Shown here piece after piece: positions 4,957 through 42,201 of a stretch of 47,463 nt of DNA. How positions within the stretch are numbered: the stretch's first letter is position 1; every line of letters begins with the position of its first letter. This DNA is from an uncultured Brevinema sp. (GTDB taxonomy: Bacteria; Spirochaetota; Brevinematia; Brevinematales; Brevinemataceae): assembly GCA_947040475.1 (NCBI GenBank), contig CAMRBT010000001.1, positions 1 to 47,463 of the forward strand, read 5' to 3'. The position numbers and the translations under genes are program-made. Under the pieces are notes generated by a model. The model made no database searches and was not told where the DNA came from. It worked only from the letters and a program-made list of their open reading frames with translations.

Positions 4957-6930
4957 TTATTTATTGATTTTTTCTTCAACAGGTATATAGCGACCATTAA
5001 AGACAACTCCGTGTACATTTAAATCGTCATCTAATATAGTGATATTAGCTTTATAACCAGCCTTAATGTAGCCATACTCATCGTCTTTTTTAATAGATCT
5101 AGCTGGGTAAAGAGAAGCCATTCTAAAAGCATCTTCTAAAGGCACTTTGACATATTTTACTAAGTTCTGAACACATTTGTCCATCAAGATCGCTACCCCC
5201 GCTAAAGTGCCATCTTCAGCGACACATTTGCCATCTCTATGATAAATTTTTCGTCCACCAAATTCAAATTCTTCTATATCTGTCCCTGCTGGTGCAGCGG
5301 CATCACTAACGAGAAAAAGGTGATCGCCTAATGATTTATAAGCAACATCTACAGAAGCATAGTTACTATGGATTCCATCCACAATAATCCCTGCATAAAT
5401 ATTATCATTTTCTAAGACTGTTCCTACTGCACCAGGTTCTCTGGAGTCCATAGGGCTCATCGCATTATATAAATGAGTTGCCATGGTAATCCCATGAGGG
5501 ATTTTTTCTTTTAATTGATTGTGAGTACCATTGGTATGACCCATAGATACAATCACCCCACCATCTGCTAATTTTTTAATGTCTTCTGCTGTATTTTCTT
5601 CTGGTGCTAGAGTAAGGATTTTTCTGTCTATTTTAGCGTTAATAATAGCATCTAACATTTCTTGAGAAGGTTTTCTAATATGTTCTATGGCATGAATTCC
5701 TTTTTTCATTTTAGAAAGATAAGGACCTTCAAAATGCCAAGCAATAATTCCTAAGATATTTTTATTTTCTATATGATTAATAAGATTTATAGCTTCTAAT
5801 ATTTTTTCATCACTATTAGTAATAAAGGTAGGTGCGTAACTAGTAACCCCATGTTTAAGATTTGTTTCAAACATTACTTGGAGAGCATCAATGGATATAT
5901 CATAATTAATATCTGCTCCACCACAACCATTAACTTGAAGATCTATATATCCAGGAACAATAGTTTTTCCTTTAAGATCTATTTTAGACATTACGATATC
6001 TGAAGAAGCATCCATTTCTATACTTTTGATTCTATCATTTTCGATAATTACTGTTGCATTATCAAGGAATTTTTCACCATCAAATACTCTAGCATTAACT
6101 AAAGCATAATAAGATTTGTATAAGCCTTTGATTAAAATTTTAGGATGAATACTTTTTGATTCTACTTCTTTATGATAACGATAGGTTCTTAATCTAATAT
6201 CGGCTACGGCATCTTCACTAGCAACAAATGTTGCTTTTGTATGCATTTGCAATGCTGAAGCAGGATAGAGGTGATTGATTCCCTCTTCAATACTTACCTG
6301 CAATGCTCTAGATTTATTAGCTCCCTGAGCTAATACTATAATTTCTTCCGCATCTAGGAGTGTTCCAACACCAATAGTTAAAGCAACTTTAGGAACTAAA
6401 TCTAAATTACCATTAAAAAATTTCGCATTCGCAACACGGGTTTCAAAGGCTAATTCTTTATCTCTTGTACGTGATTGTAAGGAAGATCCAGGTTCGTTAA
6501 AGGCTAAATGCCCATCATCGCCCAAACCACAAACCCATAAATTAACACCACCATAAGATTTGATTAATTCTTCATAACGTAGTGCTTCTTCTTTGATATC
6601 TTCTGCCAAAGCATTTAGTAAATGAATATTTTTTACTTGAGCATCAACAAAATTGAAAAAATTTGTATTAATAGTTGAAGAAAAACTATTAACATTGGTA
6701 GGATCTATTCCTAGATATTCCCCTGTATTAAAAAAAACTACATTTTTAAAACTTAATACACCATCTTGATGGAATTGAACAAGTCTTTTGTACATAGGTA
6801 GGACAGTTCCACCACCCGGTATTCCTAAAACAAAAGGTTTGTCTTCCGTTGGGGCAAAATCAAGTATTCTTTTTGCAATAAAATATGCAGACCAATCGCC
6901 AACGTGTTCTTCTGTTATAATTAATCTCAT
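4957..6930 (-). CDS. Fusion protein: glucosamine-6-phosphate deaminase-like domain (N-terminal, NagB) plus N-acetylglucosamine-6-phosphate deacetylase domain (C-terminal, NagA)
   Basis: The N-terminal ~260 aa align colinearly with NagB (MRLII..., GLGDDGHLAFNEPGSSLQSRTR, ALTIGVGTLLDAEE). The C-terminal ~390 aa align with NagA (YIDLQVNGCGG, HFEGPYLS, SMGHTN, ATHLYNAM, LVSDAAAPAG). Confidence 0.9.
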   Translation of the reverse strand: MRLIITEEHVGDWSAYFIAKRILDFAPTEDKPFVLGIPGGGTVLPMYKRLVQFHQDGVLSFKNVVFFNTGEYLGIDPTNVNSFSSTINTNFFNFVDAQVKNIHLLNALAEDIKEEALRYEELIKSYGGVNLWVCGLGDDGHLAFNEPGSSLQSRTRDKELAFETRVANAKFFNGNLDLVPKVALTIGVGTLLDAEEIIVLAQGANKSRALQVSIEEGINHLYPASALQMHTKATFVASEDAVADIRLRTYRYHKEVESKSIHPKILIKGLYKSYYALVNARVFDGEKFLDNATVIIENDRIKSIEMDASSDIVMSKIDLKGKTIVPGYIDLQVNGCGGADINYDISIDALQVMFETNLKHGVTSYAPTFITNSDEKILEAINLINHIENKNILGIIAWHFEGPYLSKMKKGIHAIEHIRKPSQEMLDAIINAKIDRKILTLAPEENTAEDIKKLADGGVIVSMGHTNGTHNQLKEKIPHGITMATHLYNAMSPMDSREPGAVGTVLENDNIYAGIIVDGIHSNYASVDVAYKSLGDHLFLVSDAAAPAGTDIEEFEFGGRKIYHRDGKCVAEDGTLAGVAILMDKCVQNLVKYVKVPLEDAFRMASLYPARSIKKDDEYGYIKAGYKANITILDDDLNVHGVVFNGRYIPVEEKINK

Positions 6931-6978: not shown

Positions 6979-7731
6979 TTATTCGTTAATTAAGGTAGTC
7001 AAGGATCTGCTAGCAACTTTATCTACCATAAAAGTAGTTTTAGGATGCATTTGTAAGACAGATGCAGGACTCATATCCGAGATCGCTTTTTCTAAACAAG
7101 ATTTAAGTGCAAACGCTTTATGGACACCATATACAACAATCAGAATTTCTTTAGCTTCACAAATCGTTCCCACACCCATTGTTAAGGCTTGGGAAGGAAC
7201 TCTAGCTATATCGCCACCAAAAAATCGGGCATCAGCTTTGAGAGTTTCTGAGGTTAATGTTTTTAATCGTGTTCGAGAATGTAAGGAAGACCCTTGTTCA
7301 TTAAATGCTAATTCTCCCATAGCTCCTAAAGATCCTAAGAAAAAATCTATTCCACCAACATCTTTAATTTTTTGTTCATATTGTTCACATTCTAAAGAAA
7401 GATTTTCGGCAGTTCCATTTAAAGTATAAATATTTTTAGGAGAGATATCAATTTTAGAAAAGAATTTCTCTTGCAATTGTTTAAAATAATCTTGCTGTTT
7501 AACTTGTGAATATCCCACAAACTCACCCGCATAAAAAATAATAACATTCTTGAGAGATACCTTTTTTTCTTGTACATAGCGTGCAAGCTCTTCACAGATA
7601 CTTAGCACGGTAAATCCTGTAGACAAACTCAATACAAAATATTCTTTTTGATTGTTATTAATTTTATCAACGATTTTTTGAACCGCAGATTTTACAATTT
7701 CATCTCTATTAAGGAGCACTTTTACTTTCAT
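6979..7731 (-). CDS. NagB/6-phosphogluconolactonase-family paralogue with degenerate active-site residues
   Basis: Colinear with NagB (LAFNEQGSSLHSRTRLKTLT, ALTMGVGTICEAKE). I prefer the ATG at 7731, which has GAGGGTG 7 nt upstream, over the track start at 7758. Confidence 0.75.
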   Translation of the reverse strand: MKVKVLLNRDEIVKSAVQKIVDKINNNQKEYFVLSLSTGFTVLSICEELARYVQEKKVSLKNVIIFYAGEFVGYSQVKQQDYFKQLQEKFFSKIDISPKNIYTLNGTAENLSLECEQYEQKIKDVGGIDFFLGSLGAMGELAFNEQGSSLHSRTRLKTLTSETLKADARFFGGDIARVPSQALTMGVGTICEAKEILIVVYGVHKAFALKSCLEKAISDMSPASVLQMHPKTTFMVDKVASRSLTTLINE

Positions 7732-7860
7732 TATCACACCCTCATATTTTTTGATCATAAATAATCATAGCATATTTTTGATTTTATGCAAATCTAAATT
7801 ACAAAATATATGTGTACTTCAATAAATAATAAGCATATAATTTATTTATTTAACTATTTA

Positions 7861-30405: not shown

Positions 30406-30882
30406 ATGGCATTAGAATCTATCAAAAAAGAAATTGGAAAGGAAATCGAAGCAACTAAATGCTTTGTAGAGCTCGCAATCGCTGCTCAAAAATGTGGCTA
30501 TACCAAAGCTGCTAAATTCTTCATCTCAGAAGCACAAGAAGATTGTGAACATGCCTTTTTATATGCAAGAGAATTAGATAAATATAGTGGGATTTTAGAT
30601 GACGATAGAAATATCGTAGAAATCACCAAAGCTTTTTATGAGCTTGAATATGGTGCTATAGAAAGAATTAGTGAAATGTATAAAGAAGCCCACAAAGAGG
30701 ATCTTCGTAGTATTCATCCTTTCCTTTCAAAAATGATGGGTAAACACACTGAAGATTGTTACAGAGCTAAAAAACTCCTCCAAAAAATCGAAGTTTTATT
30801 TTCAGCAGATTCTCTATCCGATATAGAAACTTTATTTGAAGATGAACAAGATGAAGATGATAACAATCTCATAGATAACTAA
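30406..30882 (+). CDS. Ferritin-like four-helix-bundle protein, paralogue 1 (acidic C-terminal tail)
   Basis: Helix pattern and motif ...SEAQEDCEHAF... resemble the ferritin/rubrerythrin superfamily. Clearly paralogous to the next gene. Confidence 0.5.
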   Translation: MALESIKKEIGKEIEATKCFVELAIAAQKCGYTKAAKFFISEAQEDCEHAFLYARELDKYSGILDDDRNIVEITKAFYELEYGAIERISEMYKEAHKEDLRSIHPFLSKMMGKHTEDCYRAKKLLQKIEVLFSADSLSDIETLFEDEQDEDDNNLIDN

Positions 30883-30952
30883 AAATACTATTGTATAGCT
30901 CTCAAAAATCGTCTATAATAAGTTAAATAAAATTTATTATTAGGAGATTGTT

Positions 30953-31405
30953 ATGGCATTACAATTGGTAAAAGACGAAGTCTTAAAAGAAATGGAAGCA
31001 GTGAAGTGTTTTATTGATCTAGCTATCAAAGCACAAAAAGCTGGCTACGAAAAAGCTGCAGAATATTTTTTAGCACAAGCTAGAGAAGATTGTGGACACG
31101 CTTTTAACTATGCTAAAGAATTAGATAAATACGGTGAAGTTCCTGGAGACATGACTATCACTAGTATCGTTCAAAAATTCGTAGACTTAGAAAAAGGTGC
31201 TGTCACTAGAGTTTTAGCAATTCAAGATGAAATGGTAGCAGAAAATAACAAAGGACTAGCTCCTTTTGTATTACATGTTTTACAAGATCATTCTGACGAA
31301 GCATACGTAGCTCAAAAACTTCTTCAAAAAGTAGCTGTTCTTGACAAACAAGAAGCTCTTAATGATATTGAAGAATTATTTGCTCAATTATTAGAAAAAG
31401 AATAA
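30953..31405 (+). CDS. Ferritin-like four-helix-bundle protein, paralogue 2
   Basis: Roughly half of the positions are identical by eye to the preceding gene (MALxxxKxE...VKCF..LAI.AQK.GY.KAA..F...A.EDC.HAF.YA.ELDKY). Confidence 0.5.
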   Translation: MALQLVKDEVLKEMEAVKCFIDLAIKAQKAGYEKAAEYFLAQAREDCGHAFNYAKELDKYGEVPGDMTITSIVQKFVDLEKGAVTRVLAIQDEMVAENNKGLAPFVLHVLQDHSDEAYVAQKLLQKVAVLDKQEALNDIEELFAQLLEKE

Positions 31406-33268: not shown

Positions 33269-33289
33269 AAATAAATCTCAAATAAAAAA

Positions 33290-33313
33290 CCCCCAAAATT
33301 TTGGGGGTTTTTT
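33290..33313. terminator. Bidirectional terminator between the ASST-like gene and moxR
   Basis: Perfect palindrome cccccaaaattttggggg flanked by A6 and T6. Confidence 0.85.
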
Positions 33314-33355: not shown

Positions 33356-34339
33356 TTAAGGTATCTCTACTCTTTGTAGAATTTGATCGATAAGAGTATC
33401 TGAAGTTAGTCCCTCAGCCTCAGCTTCAAAAGAAATCAACAATCTATGTCTTAATACTTCATGAGCAACACCTTTTATGTCTTCAGGAATCACATAAGCT
33501 CTTCCATCAAAAAATGCTTCTGCTTTGGCAGCTTTAAGGAATGCTAAAGAAGCTCTTGGAGATGCTCCAGCACGAATATATTCAGATTTGATTTGTACTG
33601 ATTCAGGCTCTCTAGTCGCATAAACAAGATTAACAATATATTCCATGATTTTTTCATCAGCATAAATTTGTTTAACAAAATTCTGTAAATCAAGAACTTG
33701 TTCTTTGGAAATAACTTTTTTCGGTTCTGGAATATGCAATCCACCCATACGAGAAATAATTCTTTTTTCTTCAGCTCTGGTTGGGTAATTAGCAATTACT
33801 TTTAATAAGAATCTATCCATTTGCGCTTCTGGAAGTGGATAAGTTCCTTCTTGTTCTATAGGGTTTTGAGTAGCCATTACCAAGAATGGATCTGGCAATT
33901 GATAAGTATTATCCCCAATAGTGATCGTTTTTTCTTGCATCGCTTCTAATAATGCTGCTTGCACTTTTGCTGGAGCACGATTGATTTCATCGGCTAAAAC
34001 AAAGTTTGTAAAGACAGGACCTTGCTTTACTTCAAAGTTACCAGTACCTTGATTATAAATTAGCGTTCCTCTAATATCTGCAGGCAACATATCAGGAGTA
34101 AATTGGATTCTATTAAAATCTAAATCTAAAATTTTTGCAAGTGTACTAATAGACAATGTTTTTGCTAATCCTGGTAACCCTTCTATAAGAATATGACCAC
34201 CGGTCAATAAACCCATCATCAAATATTTATAGACTGATTTTTGTCCTACAATAACTTTTTCGTATTCTAGTTCAATTTGATTGAGTATTTCTTTTTTTTC
34301 TACTGCTAATTCTGTAATACGACGAATGTCCATATCCAT
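33356..34339 (-). CDS. MoxR-family AAA+ ATPase
   Basis: 327 aa. Walker A GLPGLAKT, Walker B FVLADEINRA, MATQNPIEQEGTYPLPEAQMDRF and the C-terminal lid GASPRA. Confidence 0.92.
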   Translation of the reverse strand: MDMDIRRITELAVEKKEILNQIELEYEKVIVGQKSVYKYLMMGLLTGGHILIEGLPGLAKTLSISTLAKILDLDFNRIQFTPDMLPADIRGTLIYNQGTGNFEVKQGPVFTNFVLADEINRAPAKVQAALLEAMQEKTITIGDNTYQLPDPFLVMATQNPIEQEGTYPLPEAQMDRFLLKVIANYPTRAEEKRIISRMGGLHIPEPKKVISKEQVLDLQNFVKQIYADEKIMEYIVNLVYATREPESVQIKSEYIRAGASPRASLAFLKAAKAEAFFDGRAYVIPEDIKGVAHEVLRHRLLISFEAEAEGLTSDTLIDQILQRVEIP

Positions 34340-34369
34340 AATTTCGCCTCCTTAGTCTGTTTTATTTTT

Positions 34370-34906
34370 TTAATAACTAATCATTGATAAAATGCCTAAA
34401 ATAAATAATTTTAAAGCATAAGTATGTTTTGGATTCAATCTATGAAAATTAAAGTTAATACTAATAGCCGTAATAGTACATAAAACAGCCATAAATCCTA
34501 AGCCCAATCCTAAAGAATACACCATACTATCCACCGCATTAAAATCTTTTGCTATAATTACAGAAAAAACTAGGGGCAAAATAGCATCGCCTCTACGAAT
34601 AAATCCTATAACGGTATCTTCTAAACGGGATTTTGGTAATAAAAATCCTATAATCACACTCAATATCACTTCAAATCCAATTAAAACAATCAAGAGAAAT
34701 AATTCTTTTCCAGGAAAATTAAAAAATGGTCTTAGATTAATCATAATAACCGTTTGAATCAGTATAAAAGTAATCAATCTCAAACCAACCCAAAAGGATT
34801 CGCTCAAAGTATAAGTAAATAATACAATAACACCCAATCCTACCGCATGCCACACAAATATATTTTCAAAAAACATGCCTGAAACTAAAATATCTATTAA
34901 ATTCAT
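34370..34906 (-). CDS. RnfA/NqrE-like integral membrane protein (highly divergent)
   Basis: 178 aa, six hydrophobic spans, colinear with RnfA (ENIFVWHAVGLG ~ NNFVLVKFLGLC; ILPLVFSVII ~ FLPLITTNCA; GILSMISY ~ GLMSLAF). An ATGA overlap links it to the upstream gene. Confidence 0.5.
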   Translation of the reverse strand: MNLIDILVSGMFFENIFVWHAVGLGVIVLFTYTLSESFWVGLRLITFILIQTVIMINLRPFFNFPGKELFLLIVLIGFEVILSVIIGFLLPKSRLEDTVIGFIRRGDAILPLVFSVIIAKDFNAVDSMVYSLGLGLGFMAVLCTITAISINFNFHRLNPKHTYALKLFILGILSMISY

Positions 34907-35532
34907 TGTGTGTTTTCTCCTTTATCAGAACGAAAGAATCCCATAAATCCAATAAGTATAGCAATAATAAAAAAGATCATTGCTCTCATATTAATAGCTG
35001 ATAACCAAAATATTTTTGTATTTTTAATGGTATTTTCAAAACTTTCAAAAATAGAATCTCCACCAAAAATAAAAATTTCACCAAAAGCTCCAAATTTAAA
35101 ATTTAATGATCCATGTAAAACAATATCTCTCACACAAGAAAACAGAACAACTAAGATAGCAGAGATAAATGCTTCGACAAAAGGGGCTGATTCTCTATCA
35201 TTTTCATGATCTTCTAACCATCCTATTAACATAGAGGATGCTGTCATCGATGCAGGAAAAATTAAGGCTAATTCTTTGTATAAAGCCCAATCTACCATAC
35301 CGATTAATAAAACATAAAAAGTCCCACCACATACTCCAAAAAAAGAAGTAATATAAAAAGCGTCAGTTGTATGAATTCTTTTTTTTAATAAATCAACAAT
35401 CATTGATAAAAAAGGATAAAGAATTAAAACCCCCACCCCTGCCACAACACCTTGATAAGCACTATTCATCGTAAAAATTAGAGGATATAGACAAAATCTA
35501 ACTAATGGACCATGGGCTATTTGTTGTTTCAT
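34903..35532 (-). CDS. RnfE/NqrD-like integral membrane protein (highly divergent)
   Basis: Colinear with RnfE (RFCLYPLIF ~ LLGLCPLLA; ALIFPASMTASSMLIGW ~ GIFIPLIVTNCIVVGR; VRDIVLHGSLNF ~ LREIIGNGTLF). I prefer the ATG at 35532 with AAGGA upstream over the GTG at 35562. Confidence 0.5.
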   Translation of the reverse strand: MKQQIAHGPLVRFCLYPLIFTMNSAYQGVVAGVGVLILYPFLSMIVDLLKKRIHTTDAFYITSFFGVCGGTFYVLLIGMVDWALYKELALIFPASMTASSMLIGWLEDHENDRESAPFVEAFISAILVVLFSCVRDIVLHGSLNFKFGAFGEIFIFGGDSIFESFENTIKNTKIFWLSAINMRAMIFFIIAILIGFMGFFRSDKGENTQ

Positions 35533-35533
35533 A

Positions 35534-37162
35534 TTATATTCCTTTATTCGTGGTAAATTCACTATAAATTACAGACCCTTTTCTAAAAGCATCTATGATT
35601 CTATGACTTACAAGAGGATTTTTACTACTATATTTTTCTATTTCTGTATCATTTAATATTTCTGTCATCTTATTAATATCTTTACCTATTAATAATTGCC
35701 TTAATCTCATATCAATAAAAAAAGAATGAGCCGTTTTTAATTGTACGACTTTTACTTCTTTGATAATGTTATCTTTTACTAAGATCAATATATTAATATA
35801 GGTTCTATACAAACTGGAATCGCTGTTAATAATATAAGACATTTCGCCTTGAGTGTCCTCTGCTTGGAAAATATTTTTATTAAGGTCTATTTTTTGAACA
35901 CGATAATCAGGAAAAATTTCTGCTACAATATTCAGAAAATATTGATCTTCTCTTTGTTTGAAAGTATCATTAGGAAGAAAACTCACATTAATAAGAACAC
36001 TAGTTATCATCAACAAACCAATACTAATTCTTATAACATATCTTTTTGATATTTTAAATCTTGATTTGAAATTTTGAAAGGTATTGATTGTTAGTTTAGG
36101 GGTTCCAAAAACAGATCTTTTGGAAATAATTTCTATTAAAGAAGCACTAATATTCATTATTATTGCAGCAAAAATATGATTAATAACATAGTTAGATCTA
36201 AAAAACATCATTGAAGCGATTATGGCAGTAATAATAGTAGCAATATATCTGCCTCTTTTATTATTAATAGGAATATTGCTAGCAATAATAAATACAGCAA
36301 AAAACCATAAAGAGAGATTGTATACAAATCCTTGTATTAAAATATTCATCGCATTAGGAGTGCCTATGAGTTGAAAATAATAGATTAATAAAAAAACAAA
36401 GCTATACAGTATAGGTATAACAGGATCTATAATTTTATTGAAAGATAACAGTACATAAGCTAATAAAACAATGACAATAGAGCCAAGCCCTATATTGTAA
36501 GAGTAAGGGCTAAGAATCATAGAGAATAAATTGCCAGAATTTTGTGTTAAACTGTCTGTATAATTTTTTATTAAATCGGTATAAGCTACAATACCATTAT
36601 TGTATAAAAATGCTTTTTCAGGTACTTCAGCAATAATATGATTTGCGTCTATTAATGCGGTTAAAAAAGAAGGATTCCCTAGTGTTGTATTAGCTTCTTG
36701 TATCATAGGAACAAGGTAAAATAAGGTGAAAGTTGGTTCACTCATATAGATAGAAACAGTGGTAGAGCCTGCTAATATTCCTAATAACACAGGAGAAATA
36801 ATAGGTCTTCCCTGTACTGATAGCACGCTAGAACCAACTATCATCATGACGATAACACCTAAAACATTAGCATAGATAGATATTTGAGGAGAAAGAATAA
36901 GAACGTAGCTAATTACAGATATATGCCATAATAAACTATTAAAAAAGAGTGCTTTGTTAAAAAATTGGTACACCCACACAATAATATATGCTGTAAAATA
37001 AGCAATACATAATTGTTTGAGGACACTATATCCAAAAAAGAACAGAGAACAGAACAAGACAAAATATAAAATCAAAAGATGTTTTTTGTGTTGATCTTCT
37101 ATTGTTCTTGTATGATGAAGAAAAGGTGCTTCAGAGACTACTTTATCAAAAACTTTAAGCAT
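35534..37162 (-). CDS. RnfD-like membrane domain fused to an RnfG-like periplasmic domain (divergent)
   Basis: The first ~360 aa are polytopic and colinear with RnfD (EAPFLHH ~ SSPYTH; ...FIIASNIPINNKRGRYI ~ FILTDPVTASTTNRGRLI). One further TM segment and a ~170-aa soluble tail follow, laid out like RnfG/NqrC. Confidence 0.5.
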   Translation of the reverse strand: MLKVFDKVVSEAPFLHHTRTIEDQHKKHLLILYFVLFCSLFFFGYSVLKQLCIAYFTAYIIVWVYQFFNKALFFNSLLWHISVISYVLILSPQISIYANVLGVIVMMIVGSSVLSVQGRPIISPVLLGILAGSTTVSIYMSEPTFTLFYLVPMIQEANTTLGNPSFLTALIDANHIIAEVPEKAFLYNNGIVAYTDLIKNYTDSLTQNSGNLFSMILSPYSYNIGLGSIVIVLLAYVLLSFNKIIDPVIPILYSFVFLLIYYFQLIGTPNAMNILIQGFVYNLSLWFFAVFIIASNIPINNKRGRYIATIITAIIASMMFFRSNYVINHIFAAIIMNISASLIEIISKRSVFGTPKLTINTFQNFKSRFKISKRYVIRISIGLLMITSVLINVSFLPNDTFKQREDQYFLNIVAEIFPDYRVQKIDLNKNIFQAEDTQGEMSYIINSDSSLYRTYINILILVKDNIIKEVKVVQLKTAHSFFIDMRLRQLLIGKDINKMTEILNDTEIEKYSSKNPLVSHRIIDAFRKGSVIYSEFTTNKGI

Positions 37163-38393
37163 TAGACTGATCCTTTATTATCATTTGACCCTCTTTGATG
37201 AGTTTTCCTAAGGGAATAAACGAGGGACAAACATAACTACATAAATTACAATTAATACATTCTTTCAAATGATTTTCCAAAGCTCTATCATATTCTTTAT
37301 GCTTTATAAAATCTACTAATTTTACTGGCTCAAGTCTAATAGGGCAAACTTCTACACAAGCGGAACAATAACTACAAAGTAATTCTTCTGGAGGAGTATT
37401 GGTTCCTTCAAAAATCATTATTGCATTCATATTTTTCGTAGTGCCTTTTTGTTTTTCTAATGGTAGCCCTTGAAGAGGGCCTCCAGAAAACATTACATAG
37501 GAATTTTCTAAGGAAAAAGGACGCATAAATTTAGCAATAGGAGTACCGATTTTTACACGAAAAATGCCATGTGATAGGCTATAAGCCCCATCTACTGCTA
37601 TTACTCTATCAGTCACTGGTTTATTATAAAATAAGGCTTCGTAAATAGCATAGAATACAGTAGGCGAAAACACCACCAATCCTGCATCAGAGCAAAGGTC
37701 TGATTTATTTAATTCTTTATTAAAAAGCTTATTAATCAGTAGTTTATCATCATTCAAAGGATAACAACTATCTAACTCTACCACTGTTTTTTTATCGTCA
37801 AAAATAAACTGTTCTATTGTGTCTTTAAGTTGTTTATCTTTGGAGATGGCAAAAACAATATTTTTAGCACCTAACATTAATCTTAATTGATGGGCTATCT
37901 GCATAATTTCTCTAGTTTTTTCTAATAAAAGTACATAGTCCCCTACAACAAAGGGCTCTCCATCAACAGCATTAATCACAATAGTTTCTATTTTACGTTG
38001 CTCATAAGCTTTTGTTACTTTTTCATGAATGGCATATTCGCTATCATATTCTTCTAATCCATTAATTCCAGCATCATATATTTTTTTGATTATAATATCT
38101 GCTGACAATCCCACAGGAGTGGTTAAGTCATATATTTTTGGAGTAATAGTTTTATCTCTTTCTAAAACAAGATATTGTTGTTCTTGATGTTGTTGTATTT
38201 CTTTTATTATTCCTGCTACAGGGCTATGAGTTAAAAGATGCTTTTGAGAATTAGAGGTTAAAACTTGTCCTTCAGAAACGAGATCACCTACAGAAACGTG
38301 AAGCTCACTATCAACAGTAATAAAATAAAAATCATGAATGTTATCATTTTGAATAGATTTATTTTTGCATCGATCTTGAGAAACTAGATTCAT
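37155..38393 (-). CDS. RnfC-like protein with two 4Fe-4S ferredoxin motifs (divergent)
   Basis: N-terminal barrel-sandwich motif VSVGDLVSEGQVL...HSPVAGIIKEI. Further motifs INAVDGEPFVVGDYVLL, SGGPLQG, and the two clusters CSYCSACVEVCP and CINCNLCSYVCP. I prefer the ATG at 38393 with AGGAG upstream over the GTG at 38420. Confidence 0.6.
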   Translation of the reverse strand: MNLVSQDRCKNKSIQNDNIHDFYFITVDSELHVSVGDLVSEGQVLTSNSQKHLLTHSPVAGIIKEIQQHQEQQYLVLERDKTITPKIYDLTTPVGLSADIIIKKIYDAGINGLEEYDSEYAIHEKVTKAYEQRKIETIVINAVDGEPFVVGDYVLLLEKTREIMQIAHQLRLMLGAKNIVFAISKDKQLKDTIEQFIFDDKKTVVELDSCYPLNDDKLLINKLFNKELNKSDLCSDAGLVVFSPTVFYAIYEALFYNKPVTDRVIAVDGAYSLSHGIFRVKIGTPIAKFMRPFSLENSYVMFSGGPLQGLPLEKQKGTTKNMNAIMIFEGTNTPPEELLCSYCSACVEVCPIRLEPVKLVDFIKHKEYDRALENHLKECINCNLCSYVCPSFIPLGKLIKEGQMIIKDQSNA

Positions 38394-38504
38394 TATTACT
38401 CCTATTTTCTTATAGAACACTTTCTATTATTATATCATATTAGCACAAAAAGTCAATATATTCAAAGTATTCTCATTAAATTTGTAAAAAAAATGAATAA
38501 TTCA

Positions 38505-38559: not shown

Positions 38560-39240
38560 GTGGACAAAAATACGCAACAAAAAGAACAAGTGTCTCAAAA
38601 AACACATTCTCAGAAAAAAAAATATAAAAATAAATCTCATAAAAGAGATAATCACAAAAAAGATTCTAATACTCCTAAATGGGATATAGAAAAATCACCT
38701 CGTGATATAGAAATATCTGCAACAAAAGCTGATCTTATGAGTATTTTAGAAGATGTTGATCCTGATGAATTATTGATGACTTCTCTTGTACAACAAAGCA
38801 GAACAAAAGCTTTACCGACAATGGCTCCTAAAAAAGATCCTGTTAATTTGATGGATTCCTTTGATTCCATAGATCCCGAGAATCCTGAAAATCCAGATCA
38901 ACCTATTTCTGAAGATCCTACTGTAGTAAAAATAGATCTTACGCTAACTTGTCCTATTTGTGAAAAACCTATGCGAGAAATTATGTATGCTTTACATGAT
39001 TATGAGCATGATAGTTTGGCACATTTTGATTGTGTACACAAAAAAGTAATTGCTTCCGTTAAAGAAAAATTAACTCCCAATAGATATCTTGCTTATTTAG
39101 GTAGTGGATCTTTTGGTATTATGGAATCTGGTAAAGATAAAAAATCAACACAACTCATCGAAAAAATATATCCTGGAGCACCTCTCGAAGAACTGCTTAG
39201 TGGTGATGATCAGCAAAAATTATTGGATGAAGAATTGTAA
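38560..39240 (+). CDS. Hypothetical protein with a Lys-rich basic N-terminus and a C-terminal Cys/His (Zn-ribbon-like) module
   Basis: GTG start with GGAGG 6 nt upstream. Motif CPICEKPM...HFDCVH. Its stop lies 2 nt before the recO start codon. Confidence 0.55.
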   Translation: MDKNTQQKEQVSQKTHSQKKKYKNKSHKRDNHKKDSNTPKWDIEKSPRDIEISATKADLMSILEDVDPDELLMTSLVQQSRTKALPTMAPKKDPVNLMDSFDSIDPENPENPDQPISEDPTVVKIDLTLTCPICEKPMREIMYALHDYEHDSLAHFDCVHKKVIASVKEKLTPNRYLAYLGSGSFGIMESGKDKKSTQLIEKIYPGAPLEELLSGDDQQKLLDEEL

Positions 39241-39935: not shown

Positions 39936-40394
39936 TTATTCAGCTTTTACAGTAGCTATGGGAACAAGATGTTCAAAAAAAACAGCCTCTTCGCTATTTT
40001 CTCCATTAGTAGTAGATATTAATAATACTCCTTCCTTCCCCATCGCTACATAGGTTTCAGGTCCTACCAATCGAAACAGTCCTTGATCTTCTAATTCTAA
40101 TCTTATAAACTGAGCTATGTGTTGTTCTACAGAGGGAGTAGTCTCTGTTGCTGGAACAAAAATTATATTAAGAGATCCGTCCCCTCTCATTTCTAATTCT
40201 GTTCCTTCTGCTACAGGACTCGTAAGATGCACACCAAACTCTCTTGTTATGAATCCTACTCCTGTTGTTTTACCTAAAGAATAACTGCCTGAAAGACCTC
40301 TCAGATATCCTTCTTCATCCAAATTAGGAGAACAACCCGTCATTCCCATCAAAATAGCAAGCACACAAACAAACTTCAACATTATATTTTTCAT
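39936..40394 (-). CDS. Small lipoprotein, paralogous family member A
   Basis: I prefer the ATG at 40394 with GGAGAG upstream. Lipobox LMGMTGC, followed by ..GYLRGLSGSYSL. Confidence 0.6.
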   Translation of the reverse strand: MKNIMLKFVCVLAILMGMTGCSPNLDEEGYLRGLSGSYSLGKTTGVGFITREFGVHLTSPVAEGTELEMRGDGSLNIIFVPATETTPSVEQHIAQFIRLELEDQGLFRLVGPETYVAMGKEGVLLISTTNGENSEEAVFFEHLVPIATVKAE

Positions 40395-40477
40395 ATGATA
40401 TCTCTCCATATACATCAGTATAAGACAGTGGGGCATATTTGTCAATGTTCTCTATCATAGCCAATAGAATAATACTA

Positions 40478-40852
40478 TTAAGTTGTTTTCATTCCAAATA
40501 AAGTGATAGTCGTGAAATCAACTTCTTGATAGTTTGTACTACTATTACCCATATATAACATATCTGTTTGATAAAAAACAGGAACATATCCCACGCCATA
40601 ATTAGAGTCAATAATATAGTATGTCGCTTTATTTGGTGAAAAAACATGATGTAATTGATAAATCAAGTTTCCTTCTTGAGAGATATTTCCATAATGATCT
40701 ACGGTAGCCATATCTCCCGGCACTCTATAACTCTTATAAATTCCTTGTATATTATTAATATATTCTTTTTCTGCTGAAATAGAACAGGAAGAAATGATTA
40801 CAGATAGCATTGATAATATAAGAATAGTAAAAGATCTGATTATTATTTTCAT
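40478..40852 (-). CDS. Small lipoprotein, family member B
   Basis: Lipobox VIISSC, followed by EYINNIQGIYKS. Confidence 0.6.
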   Translation of the reverse strand: MKIIIRSFTILILSMLSVIISSCSISAEKEYINNIQGIYKSYRVPGDMATVDHYGNISQEGNLIYQLHHVFSPNKATYYIIDSNYGVGYVPVFYQTDMLYMGNSSTNYQEVDFTTITLFGMKTT

Positions 40853-40973
40853 AAATTGTTTCTCCTAAATCTTCATAGTTATAATATAGAAATATTTATA
40901 AAAAAAATGAAATGAAATTAGACATTATATTTTAATAAGAGTATTTTTATATTATAAATGGGGGGGAGATCTT

Positions 40974-41309
40974 ATGAAATTAAAGATATTACTCGGACTT
41001 TTACTATTATGTGGGATTGGTATCAATTTTTCTTATCTATTCAATTCATCAAATCAAAATATTGAGGGAGTTTATCGTATTGCAAATACTCATAACGCTC
41101 TCACCATCACAGATTCAAAACAACTCGTCTATAATAATAAAATTATAGGTTCTTTTATCGCTCACAAAAACAATTTAGAAGTATATAAATTAGTGGACGA
41201 TAGATTTTTATATTTATCTTCAAAAAACAATACTAATATTCTTATTTCTAAGACCTACAAATGGAATCTTTATCCTCTTTATTTCCCTCTTCAAGGAGTC
41301 TTATTATGA
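40974..41309 (+). CDS. Small secreted protein or lipoprotein, family member C
   Basis: Signal sequence LLGLLLLCG, followed by NQNIEGVYRI. SD GGGGGAG lies upstream. Confidence 0.55.
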   Translation: MKLKILLGLLLLCGIGINFSYLFNSSNQNIEGVYRIANTHNALTITDSKQLVYNNKIIGSFIAHKNNLEVYKLVDDRFLYLSSKNNTNILISKTYKWNLYPLYFPLQGVLL

Positions 41310-41659
41310 ATAAATCATTATTATTATCAACAATCTTATTTTTATTTTTAACATCTTGCAGTGGCGCTGCTCATCTTTTTAGAGAAAATGCTCAAGGAAC
41401 TTATCAATTATTATCAGATCCTTCTGTACAATTTTCTATAGATACTACGGGAAGTATGGCTGGAACTCCAGAAACACAAATGTTTTTTTATCAAGGTATA
41501 TCAGAAAGCGAAGCTATTTACACTAAAAAAGTTGATCGTATTAAACATTATGTACCTATTAGGCTAGATGGTCTTACTTTATATTATAATACTCCTCAAA
41601 AATCATCTCATAGTGTATCTTTTAACAACATGGTTCCTTATGCAAAAAAAATTTCCTAA
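41306..41659 (+). CDS. Small lipoprotein, family member D
   Basis: The ATG at 41306 forms an ATGA overlap with the previous stop. Lipobox FLTSC, followed by HLFRENAQGTYQL. Confidence 0.6.
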   Translation: MNKSLLLSTILFLFLTSCSGAAHLFRENAQGTYQLLSDPSVQFSIDTTGSMAGTPETQMFFYQGISESEAIYTKKVDRIKHYVPIRLDGLTLYYNTPQKSSHSVSFNNMVPYAKKIS

Positions 41660-41694
41660 GTAATTATAAGATAACTAAAATTGGGGGAATTAAC

Positions 41695-42201
41695 ATGAAT
41701 CTATTTACTCATAAAAAAATTATTATTATCAGTGTTTCTATCATAATAAACGCTATTATCACCGCCTGTAGTGTAAACACAGACTCTATCAACCCAGAAG
41801 ATGAGGTTTATTTGTCCTTTGTTTTTGGGCAATATACCCTTAGTGAAGCTGGAGCTACTTTATTAAATACAGCAGACAATTATTTCGTTAATTCACCAAA
41901 TCCTTTATATAGTACAAAAGATGCATTTACGATGAATAATTTTGGATATGCTGATATTTATATAGGTGTCGCAAGGGTTACTCTTCAATTCCAACATGCT
42001 ATCGTAGATGATGCTAACTCAGCAGTATTTGAAGTTATCAATCCTAGCCCAGAAAATTCAGGTGCTCTCATTAAAAATAATAGATATCTAAAAATAAAAT
42101 TCGATAACAACACCAATCTCATATTTTCTTCTCAATATACTGACACTCCTCAAGATGCTGAAAAACTAAGCACAAGTCTCCTCTTCTCTACTCGATTATA
42201 A
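41695..42201 (+). CDS. Small lipoprotein, family member E
   Basis: Lipobox IITAC, followed by EVYLSFVFGQYTL. SD GGGGGA lies upstream. Confidence 0.6.
   Translation: MNLFTHKKIIIISVSIIINAIITACSVNTDSINPEDEVYLSFVFGQYTLSEAGATLLNTADNYFVNSPNPLYSTKDAFTMNNFGYADIYIGVARVTLQFQHAIVDDANSAVFEVINPSPENSGALIKNNRYLKIKFDNNTNLIFSSQYTDTPQDAEKLSTSLLFSTRL

Follow-up and report, generated by a model that had tools for sequence, protein, structure and literature searches.

A probable operon in Brevinemataceae joins Rnf-derived genes that lack membrane-cofactor motifs to a gene for a MoxR ATPase

We analyzed a contig from an uncultured Brevinema sp. (GenBank assembly GCA_947040475.1, contig CAMRBT010000001.1, positions 1 to 47,463; the "window" is this whole 47 kb stretch), with a focus on an operon of genes that are related to those for the electron transport complex Rnf. 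Five genes lie head to tail on the minus strand (38393-33356): an rnfC-like gene (37155-38393; 412 amino acids); a single gene for an RnfD-like membrane domain, a linker helix, and an RnfG-like periplasmic domain (35534-37162; 542 amino acids; D/G for short); a gene for an RnfE/NqrD-like membrane subunit (34903-35532; 209 amino acids); a gene for an RnfA/NqrE-like membrane subunit (34370-34906; 178 amino acids); and moxR, which encodes a MoxR (MRP-type) AAA+ ATPase (33356-34339; 327 amino acids). The rnfC-like gene begins with the ATG at 38393, 7 nt 3' of AGGAG. We chose this start codon instead of the upstream GTG that was reported by the ORF (open reading frame) finder because the proteins from relatives begin with the same MNL.SQDRC. 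The stop codon of the rnfC-like gene overlaps the start of D/G within ATGCTTAA (37162-37155); the D/G and rnfE-like genes meet at TAAtATG; the rnfE-like and rnfA-like genes overlap by ATGA (34906-34903); and 30 nt separate the end of the rnfA-like gene from moxR. These 30 nt carry AAGGAGG, which is moxR's own ribosome-binding site. Upstream of the operon are a divergent gene of 226 codons and recO, and downstream is a convergent ASST gene. The original prediction had described the five packed genes, each of these junctions, the C-D-G-E-A order of clostridial-type rnf operons, and flanks (a recO operon and an ASST-like gene) that do not encode RnfB, and the analysis bore out every part of this description.

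About 35 nt 5' of the rnfC-like start is a promoter-like site (38429-38456, minus strand) with TTGACT, a 16-nt spacer, and an extended -10 (TGnTATAAT). It matches the consensus at 11 of 12 positions and is both the best and the sole near-consensus site on the minus strand of the 5.6 kb region; internal promoter-like matches are no more numerous than chance would give (29, against 32.6 expected from shuffled sequence). The only strong terminator that we found in the region is a bidirectional intrinsic terminator (33284-33313, both strands; a 13-bp stem with T-runs on either side), which is common to the operon and to the convergent ASST gene. As had been proposed, no strong terminator precedes the hairpin at the 3' end of the operon. 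With one promoter-like site, one terminator, and internal promoter matches at chance level, the spacing of the genes and these signals make it likely that the five genes are co-transcribed as a single unit. There is also a terminator-like hairpin with a T-run inside the rnfE-like ORF (35412-35440, minus strand), within the codons of the conserved AGVGVLILYPF. It lies in conserved coding sequence and is probably incidental; alternatively, it could attenuate the transcription of the distal genes.

The original prediction had assigned the first four genes to the Rnf/Nqr families, and profile and fold searches place all of them there. The RnfC-like protein matches TIGR01945 (4e-67, 226.6 bits, which is under the cut-off of 245.95) and the RnfC chains of three Rnf complexes in the Protein Data Bank (PDB; 7zc6_C at 1.8e-33, 8ahx_C, and 9eri_C, all from 1e-30 to 1e-33). 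It contains two CxxCxxCxxxCP motifs for binding [4Fe-4S] clusters, and all eight of these cysteines are invariant across the clade, as is SQDRC near the N terminus. In a search with this family, the members of the clade form a block at 341 bits or above, and the score then drops to 267 bits for canonical RnfC. We also considered whether the protein might be PrdC (of proline reductase) or NqrA. PrdC scored just 76 bits, which is far below the score for TIGR01945, and the nqrA models gave 34-65 bits against cut-offs of 321-450, so we rejected both. As for existing annotations, NCBI lists the RnfC-like protein of one relative (P0051) under the name "RnfABCDGE type electron transport complex subunit C", and those of other relatives are labelled "4Fe-4S dicluster domain-containing protein" or "hypothetical protein".

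The membrane subunits are more diverged, and the D/G, E, and A proteins do not match any NCBIfam model. In D/G, residues 9-353 match PF03116 (RnfD/NqrB; 1.2e-15, 58 bits), and a profile of the fusion had no match to PDB sequences even at E = 10. The RnfE-like protein had no match in Pfam, NCBIfam, or PDB sequences, in the last case again with a profile and up to E = 10. Because the profile searches of PDB sequences were blank for these two proteins, we needed fold searches. For an AlphaFold model of D/G that was built on 16 family members (pLDDT, or predicted local distance difference test, of 78), the 15 best matches in the PDB were all RnfD/NqrB chains (5e-8 to 5e-5); ranked after these, the C-terminal domain matched RnfG/NqrC chains with probabilities of 0.90-0.99. 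This is the D+G fusion that had been predicted. For the model of the RnfE-like protein (pLDDT 71), RnfE/NqrD chains occupied ranks 1-6 and 8-10 (template modeling (TM) scores of 0.39-0.58, probabilities of 0.82-0.99), and the best matches were 9eri_E, 7xk3_D, and 7zc6_E. Comparison to canonical RnfE with hhalign gave an alignment that was in register, with a weak E value (0.0074). The RnfA-like protein matches PF02508 (9e-6, 26.3 bits), NqrE (7xk3_E, 1.7e-4), and RnfA (7zc6_A, 3.4e-4). When we compared the E-like family to the A-like family with hhalign there was no signal, so the expected paralogy of these two subunits is not detectable by sequence.

The fifth protein is a textbook MoxR, with matches to AAA_3 (1.4e-64, 216 bits), to AAA_lid_2 (77 bits), and to the structure of a MoxR from Cytophaga (2r44_A, 1.7e-112), and its Walker A (GLPGLAKT) and Walker B (DEINRA) motifs are both intact. 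It does not appear to belong to a MoxR-vWA-beta-propeller conflict system: bpMoxR scored 42.6 bits (compared to 216 bits for AAA_3), and there is no vWA or propeller gene in the window.

The operon seems to be specific to the Brevinemataceae. We compared the D/G profile to 1.84 billion representative proteins in a full search with HMMER and found only 13 relatives at E ≤ 1e-30, mostly fused proteins of about 490-570 amino acids with two shorter ones, followed by two distant RnfD-type proteins. The fusion is one uninterrupted frame in all 13 of the relatives. The E-like family has 18 members, and every member with a named source is from Brevinema or Brevinemataceae and is annotated as "hypothetical protein". 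The full cassette of C, D/G, E, A, and MoxR is present in eight loci (L001, L002, L004, L005, L006, L007, L013, and L014; Brevinema or Brevinemataceae where named), even as identity to the window falls to 27% for D/G and to 41% for the RnfC-like and RnfE-like proteins. (In L004, the end of the contig cuts moxR.) A check of gene neighborhoods, which had been suggested for the adjacency of the rnfA-like gene and moxR, showed that the cassette is kept in all seven of the relatives' loci whose contig reaches moxR.

In the canonical Rnf and Nqr complexes, the membrane cofactors are a [2Fe-2S] cluster to which RnfA and RnfE each contribute two cysteines, flavin mononucleotide (FMN) groups that are covalently attached to RnfD and to RnfG, and riboflavin, and these are described as strictly conserved (PMC12174285). 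RnfB feeds electrons to the [2Fe-2S] cluster, and RnfC passes electrons via two [4Fe-4S] clusters and FMN to nicotinamide adenine dinucleotide (NAD+; PMC12174285). The original prediction held that rnfB is absent and that moxR occupies its slot, and that cofactor sites have been lost from the remaining subunits. Indeed, Pfam scans identified no RnfB (PF04060) or other ferredoxin ORF in the window, where CxxCxxCxxxC occurs just twice, both times in the RnfC-like protein. The relatives' loci likewise have no RnfB. We also found no NqrF-like ORF in the window. The losses within the other subunits persist in gapped profile alignments and in multiple alignments, which do not restore the motifs.

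All four ligands of the [2Fe-2S] cluster are affected. In the RnfA-like protein, the first ligand site changes from the canonical GxC to GLG (GLG or GLA across the family), and the second changes from TNC to an invariant RGD (R105, G106, and D107), so that aspartate replaces the cysteine. In the RnfE-like protein, there is no conserved cysteine at either site: the first site is cysteine in the closest relatives only and leucine elsewhere, and the second site, where "vNC" of canonical RnfE aligns to "TAS", is a variable Ser, Ala, Val, or Ile. The concurrent disappearance of RnfB and of the [2Fe-2S] cluster that would accept its electrons is coherent. In the RnfC-like protein, the glycine-rich loop that binds FMN and NADH (GxGGAxFP) is missing, and this loss is common to all members of the clade; in the alignment, GLGGATFPSHVK...ECEPY of canonical RnfC corresponds to GLEEYDSEYAIHEK...DGEPF in the window. 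In the window's D/G, a 5-residue deletion removes the flavinylation motif of RnfG (D-x-x-S-G-A-T, or SGAT for short), the region of the flavinylated threonine of RnfD is gapped, and GETS and TDP, two motifs of canonical RnfD, are degenerate or lost. The flavinylation motif that is recognized by ApbE (D-x-x-S/T-G-A-T) does not occur anywhere in the window.

Judging from these sequences, the complex cannot act as a ferredoxin:NAD+ pump, as every step of the canonical electron path is broken in the window except for the iron-sulfur clusters of RnfC. In particular, ferredoxin oxidation cannot be coupled to the reduction of NAD+ because RnfB, the cysteines for the [2Fe-2S] cluster, the NADH/FMN site, and the covalent-FMN sites are all gone. 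By descent, the complex is a derivative of Rnf. It fails most of the defining features of the Rnf enzyme, and annotating it as Rnf is unwarranted. Given the label on the RnfC-like protein of one relative, metabolic reconstructions could wrongly credit the Brevinemataceae with an Rnf pump.

Relatives that branch more deeply retain some of the flavin sites. SGAT is present in the G domain of P0013, P0018, and P0020, and P0021 has the variant SGVT; P0013, P0020, and P0021 also retain GETS and the motif at the D site. The D-site motif in the deeper-branching relatives reads STSTPL, SHASPL, or GVSTPM, and these proteins also give Pfam FMN_bind matches. In all four (P0013, P0018, P0020, and P0021), the cysteines of A and E, RnfB, and the FMN loop of RnfC are already missing. 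A more distant locus, L012, encodes an RnfC-like protein and an unfused RnfD-like protein of 351 amino acids, which is followed directly by the E-like gene (L012:3139-5785), so that the G domain is absent. (The contig for L012 stops short of rnfA and moxR.) An order of losses that fits these data is that the input half and the NADH site were lost at the base of the clade, that the flavin sites were lost later, and that G was lost in one branch.

The retained motifs bear on whether the complex could still work as an ion pump that is driven by redox reactions at cryptic cofactor sites. A soluble ferredoxin or flavodoxin would dock on the [4Fe-4S] domain of the RnfC-like subunit, flavins would bind non-covalently in D/G, and the acceptor might be periplasmic. 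The eight invariant cysteines of the RnfC-like subunit are compatible with such a pump, as are the flavinylation motifs and FMN_bind matches of the deeper-branching relatives and a small ferredoxin gene that follows moxR in L005. Furthermore, the Rnf of Treponema pallidum, which has no recognizable flavinylation motif, is accepted as probably functional (PMC4436053, PMC7512555). However, all members of the clade lack RnfB, the NADH/FMN loop, and the four [2Fe-2S] ligands; GETS, TDP, and SGAT are gone from the window as well; and one lineage has dropped the G domain. A structural review considers the membrane cofactors to be not only "strictly conserved" but mechanistically essential (PMC12174285), and we identified no electron donor or acceptor. 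We consider a cryptic pump to be quite improbable.

Another explanation for the loss of so many motifs is that the genes are a decaying remnant of an rnf operon and have no function. The Rnf-like proteins do evolve faster than those of neighboring genes, and their scores fall under NCBIfam cut-offs. But the reading frames are intact in all 11 of the loci that we examined, down to 27% identity, and the overlaps of start and stop codons are conserved. We also compared the window to two relatives (at synonymous divergences (dS) of 0.46-0.78) and computed the ratio of non-synonymous to synonymous divergence, or dN/dS. This ratio was 0.14-0.19 for C, 0.19-0.24 for D/G, 0.10-0.18 for E, and 0.15-0.17 for A, as compared to 0.03-0.04 for MoxR and 0.02 for RecO. 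Within D/G, the D part had a ratio of 0.20, and the G part, which lacks its motif, is separately constrained (0.135). On these values we rejected pseudogenization: the Rnf-like genes evolve faster than their neighbors yet are clearly under purifying selection. Together with the invariant residues that are specific to the family (RGD in A, SQDRC in C, and the eight cysteines for iron-sulfur clusters), they effectively refute the idea of a functionless remnant.

Turning to MoxR, its gene is at the end of the cassette, 19-42 nt beyond the rnfA-like gene in the cassette loci, and what lies 3' of it varies. There is a convergent ASST gene in the window, L001, L002, and L007; a gene for a ferredoxin in L005; a TauE-like gene in L006; and a convergent pair of genes, of which the farther has a weak match to DUF4340 in Pfam, in L013 and L014. 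Because four contexts follow moxR, rearrangement breakpoints lie right after moxR and never between rnfA and moxR. The ferredoxin in L005 (L005:13983-14153) has 56 amino acids and two [4Fe-4S] motifs, and its gene is on the same strand, 145 nt 3' of moxR; the protein could serve the RnfC-like subunit as a soluble redox partner.

MoxR was said to travel usually with vWA or DUF58 partners, and other MoxR loci agree. We used the window's MoxR to scan metagenomes and obtained 80 other MoxR loci (47-57% identity; 0.82 Mb), none of which has an Rnf-like gene within up to 8 kb. As a control, the same Rnf queries recovered every Brevinemataceae locus. In all 10 of the non-Brevinema loci that we sampled, the gene directly 3' of moxR encodes a DUF58 protein, and eight of these loci have VWA_2 as well. 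When we used seven of the DUF58 proteins as queries against the window and ten Brevinemataceae loci (166 kb), none gave a match at E ≤ 1, and Pfam scans of the window identified no DUF58 or vWA gene. The pairing of MoxR with Rnf had been thought to be undescribed. Among the literature that we searched (for MoxR with rnf gene names, the 15 top-ranked of 178 matches), we found neither Brevinema together with Rnf nor MoxR together with an Rnf complex. In spirochetes more generally, MoxR is linked to the vWA proteins of the Bat system, for which a role in the export of reducing power into the periplasm was at one time suggested (PMC3557215).

Does the conserved position of moxR reflect a shared function? 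The gene might instead be a passenger in the operon: a general chaperone with other clients, whose gene came to lie behind rnfA in an ancestor of the family and remained there because gene order in the clade is conservative, with the Rnf-like genes being just as we described. Several observations favor a passenger. The pairing has one origin, within one clade; moxR has a strong ribosome-binding site of its own and the operon's only real intergenic gap; MoxR has diverged far less than the Rnf-like proteins; and the recO pair, which is unrelated, is just as syntenic on the other side. Against this, each of the four independent contexts has its breakpoint after moxR, and none separates moxR from rnfA; the gap stays within 19-42 nt and contains no terminator; and DUF58/vWA genes, which are present in 10 of the 10 loci that we sampled elsewhere, are missing from all of the Brevinemataceae loci that we examined. 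On balance, a passenger seems somewhat unlikely. We put the chance that MoxR acts on the Rnf-derived complex at about even, or slightly less.

The interpretation that we prefer, with modest confidence, is that the operon is a repurposed Rnf scaffold that is specific to the Brevinemataceae and that now forms a non-pumping iron-sulfur module, with MoxR as its dedicated ATPase for assembly or remodeling. The four Rnf-like proteins would form a complex in the inner membrane, with a cytoplasmic RnfC-like iron-sulfur subunit, the RnfD/RnfG-like fusion, and a heterodimer of the RnfE-like and RnfA-like subunits. The ferredoxin-input half (RnfB and the four cysteines for the [2Fe-2S] cluster) has been removed as a unit, along with the NADH/FMN site of RnfC, and the window's lineage has additionally lost the two covalent-FMN sites. 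What selection has kept is the membrane scaffold, the periplasmic domain derived from G, the cytoplasmic domain with two [4Fe-4S] clusters, and the invariant RGD of the RnfA-like subunit. Because the iron-sulfur domain of RnfC is invariant, the new role would most likely be that of a redox sensor or gate, or else a residual short electron path to RnfD. In Acetobacterium woodii, RnfA/E has been described as working like a rocker-switch, with a Na+ site buried next to the cluster (bioRxiv 10.1101/2024.06.21.599731). The corresponding rocker-switch in Brevinemataceae may now handle an ion or a small solute, and the invariant Arg-Gly-Asp could lock the dimer or, alternatively, create a non-redox site for an ion or solute. 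MoxR would be co-expressed with these subunits and would probably act on the RnfC-like subunit, in place of its usual partnership with DUF58/vWA proteins. The original prediction had likewise raised dependence of the complex on a MoxR chaperone only as a possibility.

Several points weigh against this interpretation. The divergent recO pair is conserved beside rnfC to the same extent as the cassette itself; since an unrelated pair of genes is just as syntenic, synteny within the clade is, by itself, weak evidence of function. MoxR is 84-98% identical within the clade, as compared to 27-89% for the Rnf-like proteins, and such slow evolution fits a general housekeeping chaperone with other clients. 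Flavins could bind to the complex non-covalently, and the iron-sulfur domain argues for a redox role that persists. Of the losses, the one in the flavinylation region of RnfD is the least secure, as the alignment there is less certain than for RnfG, and the alignment of the first cysteine of RnfE is also less certain than the others. Finally, a DUF58/vWA partner, rnfB, or apbE may be present elsewhere in the genome.

A bolder version of the proposal, which we consider unlikely, is a stepwise conversion of Rnf in which the RGD-bearing A/E subunits move an ion or solute or signal redox state, and MoxR is an obligate partner for which the RnfC-like subunit has replaced the vWA/DUF58 adaptor. In the first stage, the input half and the NADH site would have been deleted, leaving an arm from the RnfC iron-sulfur clusters to RnfD and on to the FMN of the periplasmic RnfG, which could have carried electrons from the cytoplasm to the periplasm. 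In the second stage, the flavin sites would have been lost in the window's genus-level lineage and the entire G domain in one lineage, with a scaffold that is free of flavin motifs as the end product. The complex and MoxR together may replace the Bat system. If MoxR is truly an obligate partner, then no membrane client of a classical MoxR would have been defined genetically before this one.

Whichever role the complex has, here is a family of bacteria that keeps the C, D/G, E, and A subunits under selection without the ligands or motifs for membrane cofactors that have been called strictly conserved and that are at the heart of pumping. This raises the question of what job the Rnf/Nqr scaffold can do without an electron path, and living relatives offer intermediate stages for comparison. 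The operon is relevant, too, to a long-standing problem, the identity of the clients of classical MoxR proteins, in that it ties one of these proteins to a single defined membrane complex.

We made some other observations in the window and in related loci. The 226-amino-acid protein that is encoded just upstream of recO (38560-39240, plus strand) has no match in Pfam, and its gene is kept with recO in all of the relatives. It has a conserved Cys/His motif near its C terminus (CPICxKPxREIMYALHDxxHDxLAHFDCV), which may bind zinc. Beyond recO, five small ORFs of 111-169 amino acids with N-termini that resemble signal peptides or lipoboxes lie on both strands (39936-42201). The only one that we scanned (39936-40445) had no match in Pfam. 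Similar small unannotated ORFs are found in the relatives, between recO and the genes for rod-binding protein and flagellin. At 30406-31405 (plus strand) there are two tandem paralogs of about 150 amino acids with weak matches, below or near the cut-offs, to ferritin-like or rubrerythrin-like families in Pfam; the pair is at the same position in L001 and L007. At 4957-6930 (minus strand), a single ORF of 657 amino acids combines a NagB-like domain (glucosamine-6-phosphate isomerase/deaminase) with a NagA amidohydrolase domain. Nearby are a separate NagB-like gene (6979-7758) and genes for EIIC/EIIB, EIIA, and Enzyme I of a phosphotransferase system, which together make up a compact cluster for the utilization of amino sugars. 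Lastly, an unrelated, non-canonical Rnf-like cluster from another organism (L009:4920-10109; also L010 and L011) encodes, in this order, ApbE, a fusion of RnfD to FMN_bind, a separate RnfG, RnfE, RnfA, a 65-amino-acid ORF, and a small iron-sulfur protein. That cluster is without RnfC and adjoins genes for an oxaloacetate decarboxylase Na+ pump.

How does the Brevinema operon compare to known systems? It shares with the canonical Rnf complexes (7ZC6, 8AHX, and 9ERI) homologous C, D, G, E, and A subunits, the clostridial gene order, and the two [4Fe-4S] motifs of RnfC. Unlike them, it lacks RnfB, the cysteines of A and E, the FMN/NADH loop of RnfC, and the flavinylation motifs of D and G; its D and G are fused; and moxR is at the position of rnfB. 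The nearest case that has been described is the "noncanonical Rnf" of T. pallidum (tp0147-tp0153), in which RnfC and RnfD are recognizable and the other membrane subunits are poorly so, and which is reported to be co-transcribed (PMC4436053). This is also a spirochete Rnf-like operon without an identifiable flavinylation motif. In contrast to the Brevinema operon, and going by its published description, no link to MoxR is described, and its function as a redox pump is a proposal. No close kinship between the two is evident, as the D/G search returned just the 13 relatives and two distant RnfD-type proteins.

The Na+-translocating complex Na+-NQR offers two parallels. First, NqrA is a homolog of RnfC that is free of cofactors, so an RnfC-type subunit can lose its cofactors and remain as a structural component (PMC12174285). 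Second, the nqr operon ends with co-transcribed maturation genes, apbE and nqrM (PMC12174285), and moxR, if it has a role in assembly, would occupy a similar place at the 3' end. However, NQR swapped RnfB for NqrF and kept the [2Fe-2S] cluster, both covalent FMNs, and riboflavin, whereas the Brevinema complex has lost these, and the window has no NqrF. As for MoxR, the Brevinema protein is of the same textbook type as in the MoxR/DUF58-vWA and Bat systems, but its gene has no adjacent vWA or DUF58 gene and instead adjoins an Rnf-type cluster. Proteins of the MoxR family are known to bind respiratory complexes with iron-sulfur clusters: RavA-ViaA binds both NuoF, a member of the Complex1_51K fold family to which RnfC belongs as well (PMC3893208), and fumarate reductase (PMC10585395). 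These interactions of RavA-ViaA, the maturation genes at the 3' end of the nqr operon, and the cofactor-free NqrA all support the view that MoxR is an ATPase for assembly or remodeling of the Rnf-derived complex.

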